Origin: Nitrospirota bacterium
Lineage (GTDB): Bacteria; JACPQY01
Direction of reading: 5' to 3'
DNA: 64,000 bases
Assembly: GCA_016180645.1 (NCBI GenBank)
Contig: JACPAV010000011.1
Span: 62,001-126,000, forward strand
Under the pieces are notes generated by a model. That model was given only the letters and a program-made list of their open reading frames with translations, ran no database searches and was not told where the DNA came from. The translations under genes and the position numbers were made by a program. Shown here in pieces: positions 36,306 through 39,270 of this stretch; within the stretch, counting starts at the first letter, position 1, and each line of letters opens with the position of its first letter.

Positions 36306-37139
36306 ATGCAAATCAGTGAGGGCACGGCGGTTTTGTTCTATCTGGATGCGCGCCGAACGTATCTGAAAACGGTCCATCCCGGGGACAAGCTTCACACCCA
36401 CAAGGGGATGATCTCGATGGACGATGCCATCGGCCACCCCTTCGGAGACTCCATTCGCACCCACCTCGGGAACACCGTCATTCTCCTGGAACCGACACTC
36501 GAAGACATGATGATGAAAATCCAGCGGCAGACCCAGATCATCTATCCCAAGGAGGCGGCCCTCATCATCCTCAAGGCCGGTGTCCTGAAAGGATATCGCG
36601 TTTTGGAGGTGGGATTCGGCTCGGGCGCTCTCACCATGGCGCTGGCGAATGCCGTGGGGGATACCGGAAAGGTCTACGCCTATGATCGTCGCGAAGACAG
36701 GATCGAGAAGGCCCTTCGCAATACGCGGTGGCTCAATCTCACCCACACGATCCAGTTCAAGACGGCCTCGATCCCGGACCGGTACGACGAATCGGATCTG
36801 GATGCGGCCATGGTGGATGTGCCTGAACCGTGGGAAGTGGTCGAACCTGTCTGGACCGCCCTTCGGGGCGGCGGACGCTGGGTGAGCCTGTCCCCCACGT
36901 ACAATCAGGTGGAGAAGACCGCTATCGCGTTGGGTCGAGGCGGGTTCATCTTCCTCGAGACGATCGAAATACTTACGCGGATCATTCTGGCCCGGGAAGG
37001 AAGAACTCGGCCGTTCGAGCGGATGATCGGGCACACGGCATTCCTGACCTTCGCCAGGAAGATCAATGAACGTCGAGCGGAGCCCGTCCCCGAGGTGCCG
37101 GCCGGAGAGGAATCGCCAGAGGCGGTCGAGCCCACATGA
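36306..37139 (+). CDS. trmI: tRNA (adenine58-N1)-methyltransferase
   Basis: RQTQIIYPKE, LEVGFGSGALT, DVPEPW, PTYNQV, RP..RMIGHTAFL. Confidence 0.93.
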   Translation: MQISEGTAVLFYLDARRTYLKTVHPGDKLHTHKGMISMDDAIGHPFGDSIRTHLGNTVILLEPTLEDMMMKIQRQTQIIYPKEAALIILKAGVLKGYRVLEVGFGSGALTMALANAVGDTGKVYAYDRREDRIEKALRNTRWLNLTHTIQFKTASIPDRYDESDLDAAMVDVPEPWEVVEPVWTALRGGGRWVSLSPTYNQVEKTAIALGRGGFIFLETIEILTRIILAREGRTRPFERMIGHTAFLTFARKINERRAEPVPEVPAGEESPEAVEPT

Positions 37140-38110
37140 TCCGGGTGACGTTCAACCACAAGGTCCTGGAATTCGAGGGCTCCATGACCACCGGGCAGCT
37201 TTTGAAAAAGATGAATCTCCTCCCGGAAGTCGTTCTGGTCGCCAAGAATGGCGAAATCGTCACGGAAGACGAGTTCCTCCGCCCCGAAGACGAAGTCGAA
37301 ATTATCCGCGCCATTTCTGGTGGAGCGGATCCGGCAAGCCTGCCTCGTTCCAACTCCGTTCCCGGCCCCATCCCCGATGGGGCCCGCGTTTCCTATAGAA
37401 TCCCCATAAAAGATTGGCCCGATAGCGATCAGCCGAGGGAAAAGCTGATTCAAATGGGACCGGATTCTCTGAACGATGCCGAACTGCTGGCCATTCTGCT
37501 CCGCACGGGAGTGAAAGGCCTCAGCGCGGTGGACCTCGCCCGGCAGGTCCTCAAGGACGTGGGCGGATGGGCCGTGCTTGCCCGCTCCGATGCCGCCGAC
37601 TACCAAGGTGTGAAGGGCTTGGGGCCGGCAAAAATTGCCCAGATTCTCGCCGCGCTGGAAATCGGCCGCCGGGCGGCCCATGCTCCGAAGCCGGACGAAT
37701 TGTACATCCGCGGCTCCGGGGACGTTTTTCAACTTGTTTCTCCCAAGCTGCGGGACCTAAAGAAAGAAGTGCTCGACGTGCTCTTTCTCAATTCACGTAA
37801 TCATGTGCTGGCCCAGGAGCGCCTCAGCAGGGGAACCGTCAACCGGAGCAGCGTGTTCGCCCGCGAGATTGTGGAGCGCGCACTCCGCCGGGGCGCCGCG
37901 GCTCTGATTCTCATCCACAACCATCCTTCCGGAGATCCTGCGCCCAGCGCAGAGGACGAACGCGTGACCCAGGAAATGGTGTGGGCCGGTGAAATCCTCA
38001 ACCTGTGCGTTTTGGATCATGTGATCATCGGCGGGAACCGCCATTTCAGCTTTGCGGATGAGGGAAAGATCGAGGCCATGCGCTCGAAAGCCAGGGACAA
38101 ACGAAAATGA
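37136..38110 (+). CDS. radC: Fusion protein: N-terminal TtuB/ThiS/MoaD-like ubiquitin-like domain (aa 1-63, ends ISGG) + RadC (HhH + JAB/MPN+) domain
   Basis: VLVAKNGEIV...DEVEIIRAISGG beta-grasp; Pro-rich linker; then IKDWP..DQPREKL...LNDAELLAILLRTG, GLGPAK, LSRGTVN, HNHPSGDPAPSAED, LDHVIIG; ATGA overlaps at both ends. Confidence 0.88.
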   Translation: MIRVTFNHKVLEFEGSMTTGQLLKKMNLLPEVVLVAKNGEIVTEDEFLRPEDEVEIIRAISGGADPASLPRSNSVPGPIPDGARVSYRIPIKDWPDSDQPREKLIQMGPDSLNDAELLAILLRTGVKGLSAVDLARQVLKDVGGWAVLARSDAADYQGVKGLGPAKIAQILAALEIGRRAAHAPKPDELYIRGSGDVFQLVSPKLRDLKKEVLDVLFLNSRNHVLAQERLSRGTVNRSSVFAREIVERALRRGAAALILIHNHPSGDPAPSAEDERVTQEMVWAGEILNLCVLDHVIIGGNRHFSFADEGKIEAMRSKARDKRK

Positions 38111-39270
38111 GATGTACCCCGTGCGGACAAAAGGCCATCGTTCACCTCCCAGCCTATCGTCTGCGATTGTGCAAAACGTGCTATCCCGCATGGTTCGAAA
38201 AACATACACAGCGGACGATCGAACGGCTGAAAATGTTCACGCGGCAGGATCGGGTCCTCGTTGCCGTCTCCGGCGGCAAGGACAGCCTCGGCCTCTGGCA
38301 CGCTCTTCTAAAACTCGGATACGAAACAGACGGGTTCTACATTCACCTGAGGATCCAATCCGATCACCGCGACGAGGGAGCACCCCCCCCCCCACCCTAC
38401 TCGGAGGACTCCCTGACGTTCGCCCAAGCCTATGCAGACCGGATCGGGAGGAAGCTCCACGTCGTCGACCTCCAGGAAACGCTCGGCTTCGGCATCCCGG
38501 AAATTCGCCGGGCCGCGCGTCGCCCGCCCTGTTCACCCTGCGGAACCATCAAACGCCACTACATGAACAGCGTCGCCATCGAGGGCGGATTCGCCGTCAT
38601 GGCCACGGGACACAACCTCGACGATGAGGTGGCAACGCTTTTCTCGAATACCCTGCGATGGGATATGGACTATCTATCACGCCAACACCCTGTCCTTCCG
38701 GCCGCGGAGGGCTTCGCGCGCAAAGTGAAACCCTTCTGCTTCTTCTCCGAGAAGGAAACGGCGCTATACGCCCGCGTGGAGGGGATCCCTTACGTGTACG
38801 ACGAGTGCCCTTTTGCGGCCGGCGCCACTTCGCTGCACATGAAAGACGTGATCAACCGGCTCGAACACGATTCTCCCGGGATGAAGCGGACCTTCCTGGC
38901 GAATTTCCTCAAAGCCAAGGATCGTCTCCCGACCGCCCCCAAACCGGAGATGCGCCCTTGCAAGGAATGCGGCGCAATGACCCCATCGCGATTCCACTCG
39001 CCGTCCCCGGAGCGGAGCGGAGGGGGCGGGGCAGATCCCCATGTAGAATCCGTTCGCCGTCCCGGTGCCGGTCCGAATGAATCTCCATCCACCGTCCCCG
39101 AAGGGGGCCGGAGCGAAGCGGAGCGGGGCGGGGCGCCCACTCCCGCGGAAGTATGCGCCTTCTGCCGCCTCCGGGACCTTACTCGGAACAAGGAAGCGGC
39201 AAGAGTGGAGGCGCTCCACAATCCGATCCCGCGCCCCATGACGACCGCCGAGGACGGCTCGGTTCCCTGA
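38107..39270 (+). CDS. ttuA: tRNA 2-thiolation protein TtuA/Ncs6 (PP-loop ATPase, Fe-S), with an insertion in the C-terminal Zn finger
   Basis: N-terminal CTPC...CKTC, SGGKDS, CSPC, GHNLDDE, ECPF, C-terminal CKEC...CAFC. Confidence 0.9.
   Translation: MRCTPCGQKAIVHLPAYRLRLCKTCYPAWFEKHTQRTIERLKMFTRQDRVLVAVSGGKDSLGLWHALLKLGYETDGFYIHLRIQSDHRDEGAPPPPPYSEDSLTFAQAYADRIGRKLHVVDLQETLGFGIPEIRRAARRPPCSPCGTIKRHYMNSVAIEGGFAVMATGHNLDDEVATLFSNTLRWDMDYLSRQHPVLPAAEGFARKVKPFCFFSEKETALYARVEGIPYVYDECPFAAGATSLHMKDVINRLEHDSPGMKRTFLANFLKAKDRLPTAPKPEMRPCKECGAMTPSRFHSPSPERSGGGGADPHVESVRRPGAGPNESPSTVPEGGRSEAERGGAPTPAEVCAFCRLRDLTRNKEAARVEALHNPIPRPMTTAEDGSVP

Follow-up and report, generated by a model that had tools for sequence, protein, structure and literature searches.

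A TtuB-like sulfur carrier fused through Gly-Gly to RadC between trmI and ttuA in a Nitrospirota bacterium, a candidate precursor for cleavage by a JAMM peptidase

Sulfur carriers of the ubiquitin-like (Ubl) type need a free C-terminal Gly-Gly for the chemistry of their activating (E1) enzymes. The window analyzed here, the whole stretch of 64,000 nucleotides from a Nitrospirota bacterium (GenBank assembly GCA_016180645.1, contig JACPAV010000011.1, positions 62,001 to 126,000 of the forward strand), contains a gene in which a domain predicted to be such a carrier, of the TtuB type, runs on through its Gly-Gly into a complete RadC protein, and this gene lies between trmI and ttuA. The locus raises the question of whether a working carrier is released from the fusion and, if so, by which peptidase. 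Since a free Gly-Gly is indispensable to the carrier's function, it is reasonable to expect cleavage. The reading preferred here, tentatively and by analogy with known systems, is that the gene product is a precursor of TtuB with a whole RadC as its tail, and that it would be cut after G63 in trans by a stand-alone JAMM peptidase encoded elsewhere in the genome.

The coordinates of the features are summarized in Table 1. The codon after those of the two glycines is gcg (Ala64) and not a stop, 261 more residues follow G63, and the free C-terminal carboxylate for adenylation is not present in the primary translation product. Codons 64-106 hold no in-frame ATG, GTG or TTG, the first in-frame start being the ATG of M107. 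The gene is joined to both neighbors by ATGA overlaps: its ATG at 37136 overlaps the trmI stop at 37137-39, and the ttuA ATG at 38107 overlaps its own stop at 38108-10. The original prediction, made from the letters of the sequence, had described the open reading frame at 37136-38110 as a Ubl ending in GG, a linker and a RadC, with GCG in place of a stop after GG, no start codon in the linker and ATGA coupling on both sides; codon reading, Pfam and NCBIfam agree with it on each of these points, and the HMM check that it had proposed matched ThiS, UPF0758_N and the RadC JAB domain in the one protein. Its linker of 22 aa stood in part, since that length matches the low-confidence stretch 61-82 of the AlphaFold2 (AF2) model, but a spacer of 27 aa separates G63 from the first position of the RadC family. 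The same model gives a pLDDT of 93-98 for residues 1-60 and is also confident for the RadC part, with values below 50 at residues 61-82 and 91-98, so that the GG tail is of low confidence. Its pTM is 0.55 with no confident packing of Ubl against RadC, which is compatible with docking in cis or without it. The contrast drawn earlier with a free ThiS in the window also held, as the ThiS of the thiO-thiS-thiG genes ends VQGG-stop.

That the fusion is an artefact, either an assembly or sequencing error or a stop that decayed recently in a single genome, is scarcely credible. Logan contigs from four runs span positions 36900-38300 with 0 indels, and no sign was seen of the lost stop or assembly error against which the original prediction had advised a check. 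All four runs belong to one study, and this DNA may itself derive from three of them, which leaves the artefact some support, but the same in-frame fusion is found at 59% identity in two proteins of other assemblies. Among the best 120 matches to the whole protein, ThiS and RadC are present together in three: the query's own cluster, P0002 (371 aa, 59% identity to the fusion protein) and P0003 (322 aa, 59% identity), the last from a Nitrospirae metagenome-assembled genome (MAG) and labeled at NCBI merely 'DNA repair protein RadC'. The motif AISGG[A/S]D is common to all three fusion proteins, and the linker after it varies in sequence and in length, from about 14 to about 60 residues. Sister genome G001, the source of P0003 and the only genome of the same family compared, has the same order of trmI, fusion and ttuA, so that the architecture which had been suggested as worth seeking beside ttuA elsewhere does exist there. 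Between the window genome and the G001 locus the identities are 66% for TrmI, 61% for the Ubl, 62% for RadC and 72% for TtuA. The lack of an in-frame start in the linker, from which full-length RadC could be made separately, likewise speaks against an error. The conserved fusions effectively refute the artefact, and because the same in-frame fusion recurs in independent sequences and G001 keeps the gene order, this is a real gene, conserved in a small family of bacteria from groundwater. The only difference among the Logan contigs is an A>G change at window position 37215 in run X3 (codon 27 AAT->AGT, Asn->Ser, in the Ubl domain), which is probably a strain variant.

By sequence and by model the N-terminal domain is identified as a TtuB/SAMP2-type sulfur carrier, the identity that it had been given at the outset. 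The Pfam ThiS profile spans aa 4-63 and reaches its own end (76/76) with 41.9 bits against a cut-off of 22.5. The best sequence match in the PDB is TtuB of Thermus thermophilus (5ZTB_E, E 6.9e-06), which likewise ends AISGG and whose last two residues align with G62-G63; the next are Mth1743 and SAMP2 (5LDA_B, E 0.0018). Foldseek aligns the Ubl with the TtuB chains of TtuA-TtuB complexes at TMt 0.77-0.88. All 13 aligned sequences, among them both fused ones, share the residues S61, G62 and G63, and SGG is also present in the third fusion.

Precursor-type TtuB, with residues after the Gly-Gly, seems to be the norm in this clade and a free GG terminus the exception. Tails were surveyed in 22 loci, made up of 21 genome-contig loci (L047 was dropped, having no match at E<=1e-5) and one metagenome locus. 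Fifteen genes run on for 2-32 aa past GG and six end there; the remaining locus is the RadC fusion. Of the 11 tailed loci in which ttuA is the next gene, 10 have a ttuB stop that overlaps the start of ttuA, in eight of them by 4 bases; the tails are therefore understood as coupling spacers, from which the carrier must be trimmed.

A candidate peptidase for this task is encoded elsewhere in the genome of this bacterium (G000:C32). It is a stand-alone JAMM protein of 142 aa with Prok-JAB matches of 2.3e-22 and 7.6e-23, in the sequence of which the motif E..HSHx7SxxD can be read, and PfJAMM1 (5LDA_A, 1.1e-13) is among its best relatives in the PDB; structure 5LDA is PfJAMM1 with SAMP2. Strong stand-alone Prok-JAB matches were found in all 15 genomes with a tailed TtuB (best E 2.7e-17 to 3.3e-27), and homologues of the JAMM of this genome, at 27-43% identity, in 15 of 15 of these genomes versus none of five in which TtuB ends at GG. 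RadC is absent from 4 of the 15 tailed-TtuB genomes and partial in one. This comparison of sequences favors the stand-alone JAMM over RadC as the protease, and to that extent goes against the original prediction, by which the fused RadC may make the cut.

In the scheme proposed, a JAMM-type zinc peptidase would cut between G63 and A64, and this would most likely be the stand-alone, PfJAMM1-like enzyme of G000:C32, acting in trans. The freed TtuB would be adenylated and thiocarboxylated by a rhodanese-ThiF E1 and would then hand its sulfur to TtuA for the 2-thiolation of U54, alongside TrmI, on the Thermus paradigm. RadC would be released with a short N-terminal extension and would have its own separate job. 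Because the TtuB clade routinely makes the carrier as a tailed precursor that needs trimming anyway, such a fusion would be tolerated, and it would ensure co-expression. A cut of this kind would parallel the action of the JAMM peptidases DR0402 of Deinococcus and HvJAMM1 of Haloferax, which according to the available text cleave MoaD-MoaE linear fusions (PMC8832034). Thermus cells that lack the JAMM gene, again according to the available text, have disturbed TtuB conjugates and about 50% less thiouridine (PMC3980101).

The genome provides further parts of such a pathway. Its one strong E1 is the rhodanese-ThiF protein at G000:C47 (L019:1435-2604, -), in which the rhodanese domain (aa 21-112) is N-terminal to ThiF (aa 133-368); MoeZ-type enzymes have the reverse order, ThiF and then rhodanese. 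A search for the ThiS family in the genome gave three matches alone, the fusion, the thiamine ThiS and a Ubl fused to a NIL domain, and no free TtuB gene was found by it. The last of these proteins has 170 aa and consists of a second Ubl of the ThiS/MoaD family, ending AIAGG, that continues through GG into NIL. It is encoded between a ThrC-like pyridoxal phosphate (PLP) enzyme and a sulfate adenylyltransferase both here (G000:C53, L001:1492-2004, +) and in the sister genome (G001:C16, L050, ~1489-2004, +). This locus has the look of a cluster for thiocarboxylate-dependent sulfur assimilation, with a carrier that would likewise have to be trimmed, and it fits a lineage in which fusions after GG are tolerated as trimming already exists.

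Several points weigh against a cut by the stand-alone JAMM. Cleavage in trans does not explain why radC stands between ttuB and ttuA and has remained in the fusion while the sequences diverged by about 40%. The 15 genomes with a tailed TtuB are mostly MAGs of related Acidobacteriota, not independent and of unreported completeness, and form a small grouping. The sister genome carries both the RadC and the NIL fusion, and in this 84% complete assembly no stand-alone JAMM was detected, either by the family search or with the JAMM of G000 as query. A glpD-like gene that lies upstream of the JAMM in G000 was not found in G001 either, and because this neighbor is missing too, the JAMM region of G001 may simply be unassembled.

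Table 1. Features of the trmI-fusion-ttuA locus, with positions in the window
Feature	Position	Strand	Evidence
trmI (tRNA m1A58 methyltransferase, GCD14/TrmI family), 277 aa	36306..37139	+	Pfam GCD14 1.4e-32, TrmI-like_N 3.6e-05
Fusion gene, TtuB-like Ubl + linker + RadC, 324 aa	37136..38110	+	Pfam, NCBIfam; kept in P0002, P0003, G001
Ubl beta-grasp domain, predicted sulfur carrier, aa 1-63, C-terminus AISGG	37136..37324	+	Pfam ThiS 1.5e-10
Gly62-Gly63 codons ggt gga	37319-37324	+	Codon reading
Linker, aa 64-90, Pro/Ser/Gly-rich	37325..37405	+	Codon reading; putative scissile bond G63|A64 at 5' end
RadC N-terminal helix-hairpin-helix region (UPF0758_N), aa 91-168	37406..37639	+	Pfam PF20582 1.8e-26
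RadC JAB domain (PF04002) with JAMM motif, aa 193-310	37712..38065	+	Pfam RadC 4.1e-40
HNHPSGDPAPSAED JAMM segment, first residue H261	37916-37957	+	Sequence reading
ttuA (tRNA 2-thiouridine synthetase, PP-loop, N-terminal LIM-type zinc finger), 387 aa	38107..39270	+	Pfam ATP_bind_3 7.3e-08, TtuA_LIM_N 6.4e-07

The RadC part of the fusion could itself be the peptidase. It is a complete RadC, as had been predicted, with its helix-hairpin-helix (HhH) region and with the JAMM segment HNHPSGDPAPSAED starting at H261 (base 37916). It scores 236.6 bits against the NCBIfam equivalog NF000642 (cut-off 180) and 214 bits against TIGR00608 (cut-off 133.85). It matches structure 2QLC by sequence with E 5.7e-28, and in Foldseek its JAB domain does so with TMt 0.90-0.93. 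Being 46-54% identical to RadCs of other phyla, it looks from its sequence like the ordinary housekeeping type. The JAMM residues E211, H261-x-H263, S271 and D274 (pattern E...HxHx7SxxD) are complete and are invariant in an alignment of three fused and three free RadCs.

On the alternative that these data invite, the RadC JAB domain would be a Gly-Gly peptidase that cuts G63|A64 in cis or between molecules and so matures TtuB; by extension it may also strip TtuB from conjugates, perhaps on tRNA or another nucleic acid held by the HhH region. This is unlikely, although it has more in its favor than the intact motif and the resemblance of the fused RadC to the ordinary type. A canonical JAMM substrate, Ubl-GG-X, lies on the same chain as the JAMM site, with the low-confidence stretch and the 27-aa spacer between them, and the fusion together with GG[AS]D is kept at 59-65% identity. 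In G001 no RadC and no JAB-family match was found besides the fused protein, yet both Ubl-GG fusions are present; the weight of this point is reduced by the completeness of that genome, 84%. The likeness of the RadC JAB domain to Ubl-specific JAMMs (PfJAMM1, CSN5, AMSH/Sst2) is weak, with E 1e-2 to 4e-2 and TMt 0.25-0.46, the values for PfJAMM1 being about 1e-2 and 0.37-0.46. RadC is also missing from four of the 15 genomes whose TtuB needs trimming, all of which have the stand-alone JAMM, and it occurs within about 6 kb of ttuB in just one of 22 loci, as detailed below.

The literature, as far as it was searched, contained no report of a peptidase activity of RadC. Iyer et al. (2011) describe, in the available text, RadC fusions to HhH, ArdC, primase and DinG, from which a nuclease-like role was inferred, in a nucleic-acid context and apart from Ubl systems (PMC3239186). 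In the available text of Iyer et al. (2006) RadC is not mentioned (PMC1779556). A review of 2025, in the part available, calls the activity of RadC-like domains unknown and notes their likeness to JAMM peptidases (PMC11981726). The general proposition that RadC-type JABs are Gly-Gly-directed peptidases, with the RadC of this locus cleaving itself and then serving as a TtuB maturase or deconjugase, possibly held on nucleic acid by its HhH region, is rated as improbable.

Besides the fusion, this genome has two more RadC paralogues. One is full-length, with 230 aa and 37% identity to the fused RadC, and its gene (G000:C10, L005:1192-1884) is flanked by gltX and by the type I restriction gene hsdR; this copy was not found in the 84% complete sister genome. 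A RadC-like gene that encodes the JAB domain only lies beside phage- or mobile-looking genes, and about 4 kb from it are a weak Prok-JAB match and an E1-like ThiF match in a 484-aa frame. This region (G000:C20, ~93.4-98.4 kb) may be a mobile JAB-E1 module of the Ubl-conjugation or defence type.

Alternatively, the fusion may never be cut. The Ubl would then serve as a built-in domain for docking or regulation and recruit RadC to TtuA, to the E1 or to tRNA, and TtuA would use another sulfur donor, for instance sulfide; the TtuA of Thermotoga is reported to use sulfide at its Fe-S cluster in this way. The ThiS-family search of this genome, which yielded no free TtuB gene, is in keeping with such an uncut adaptor, and so is the failure to detect a stand-alone JAMM in G001. 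Ubl domains are moreover fused and uncut elsewhere, in ThiS-ThiG and Ubl-CysK-like proteins and, in the available text of PMC1779556, in Ubl-ThiF. An adaptor of this sort is nevertheless a doubtful explanation. The invariance of SGG fits the need for a carrier terminus, an argument weakened by the small number of sequences. The Ubl evolves no faster than RadC (61% versus 62% identity between the window genome and G001 contig L026), and the genome encodes an E1 that has a rhodanese domain. The terminal Gly reportedly enters the active site in the Thermus structures of TtuA with TtuB, and judged by these an extension of 261 aa would be expected to block it.

The fusion is rare. A HMMER scan with aa 1-100 over 1.84 billion representatives gave 363 proteins at E<=0.001, and among the best 150 of these, which were listed, one was a Ubl-RadC fusion (P0003). 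Most of the others listed have 62-70 aa, and some are tailed. One long match, P0135, was rejected as an ankyrin false positive. Another, P0213 (326 aa), is a TrmI-TtuB-like fusion in which the methyltransferase precedes a C-terminal Ubl that ends VVSGD and not GG; by its sequence it may be taken as another sign of the tight link between trmI and ttuB. No N-terminal Ubl was present in the other 117 of the best 120 RadC matches, nor in the six ESM Atlas RadC clusters shown out of 30 matches, clusters of at least 50 members having been searched. Word-index searches (aa 1-100; longer proteins) returned the query's own cluster alone, a result of little weight with regard to other fusions. A metagenome scan with the Ubl gave at least one locus, with an unfused ttuB-ttuA pair.

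Two further long frames that match the Ubl, from unrelated genomes, were considered as RadC fusions and turned out to be fusions of other kinds. One (G002:C34, L057:400-1551, -) joins a Ubl through GG to a CysK/CysM-like PLP enzyme and lies beside a sulfite-reductase-like/TusA-like gene. The other (G040:C33, L058:1492-3033, +) is a ThiS-ThiG fusion. The genome with the CysK-like fusion also has a free TtuB-like gene (G002:C66, L009:1501-1719) whose 72-aa product is 56% identical to the fused Ubl and ends SGG-KKIL; this gene adjoins purD and a glycosyltransferase and not ttuA.

TtuB-like loci on genome contigs were found with an alignment of four sequences and number 22. In 16 of them ttuA is adjacent, in eight trmI is directly upstream, and the full order trmI-ttuB-ttuA occurs in seven (six without the Nitrospirae MAG), in MAGs of Acidobacteriota and Schekmanbacteria. 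In one of the 22 loci, that of the Nitrospirae MAG, a RadC is encoded no more than about 6 kb from ttuB. Because the order trmI-ttuB-ttuA recurs in other loci without RadC, the comparison indicates that this is the ancestral layout, to which a single small lineage added radC by insertion and fusion. The original prediction had seen in the locus a possible function for RadC, an idea that, applied to RadC in general, sits poorly with this single occurrence near ttuB and with the tailed-TtuB genomes that have no RadC.

Release of the carrier in trans by the stand-alone JAMM, the reading preferred above, places the fusion among known systems, and it is best filed under the established design of a Ubl fused through Gly-Gly and matured by a JAMM, with RadC as an unusual partner. 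The TtuA/TtuB/TtuC system for tRNA s2T54 in Thermus, which has a JAMM isopeptidase, is alike in that its TtuB ends AISGG, and in the genome analyzed here the fused Ubl adjoins ttuA and both an E1 and a stand-alone JAMM are encoded. The Thermus TtuB, however, is free and ends at GG in the solved chain, whereas here 261 residues follow. The RadC family search gave no match in the Thermus genome used as control. The MoaD-MoaE fusions resemble the present one in having the Ubl N-terminal to its partner and joined to it through GG. In them the Ubl is released by a JAMM in trans, and the partner is the carrier's own enzyme, MoaE, while here it is RadC, a JAB-fold protein with no known role in the pathway. 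The pair PfJAMM1-SAMP2 (5LDA) has its likeness here in a Ubl related to SAMP2/TtuB and a JAMM related to PfJAMM1. Other precursor-type carriers with residues after GG that are trimmed by a JAMM are found in HcyS-Ala/HcyD, QbsE/QbsD and CysO/Mec+, in which GG is extended by 1-2 residues or an adduct, often with a JAMM gene in the cluster of the carrier. Unlike these, the extension here amounts to a whole protein, and the gene for the JAMM lies elsewhere, unlinked to the fusion. In its C-terminal 234 aa the fusion is an ordinary full-length member of the RadC/YicR family (UPF0758, 2QLC) with the JAMM motif, but the RadC fusions described in the available text of PMC3239186 are to the DNA enzymes ArdC, primase and DinG and not to a Ubl. 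A Ubl-RadC fusion is apparently undescribed: no account of one was found in the literature searched, although it could figure in the lists of architectures that supplement PMC3239186 and PMC1779556.

Few bacterial proteins of no known activity are as widespread as RadC, and the conserved fusion puts a Ubl-Gly-Gly-X substrate and an intact RadC JAMM site on one chain, which makes it a clean test bed for the activity of RadC. If RadC cuts the fusion, this would be the first enzymatic activity for the family and would overturn the view of RadC JABs as nucleases unrelated to Ubls. If the stand-alone JAMM cuts it, a precursor-type TtuB and a trimming peptidase would allow whole genes to be fused behind Gly-Gly, as a bacterial counterpart of the ubiquitin-fusion precursors. 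That would explain the Ubl-GG-X fusions with RadC and NIL in this genome and with ThiG and a CysK-like enzyme in two others.

Downstream of the fusion, the ttuA product scores 264 bits against NCBIfam NF049949, for which the cut-off is 450, with its Pfam PP-loop and LIM domains above their own cut-offs. The trpE gene begins 16 bases past ttuA and is overlapped by trpG (window 39286-41357), so that trmI, the fusion gene and ttuA may be co-transcribed with the genes for anthranilate synthase.

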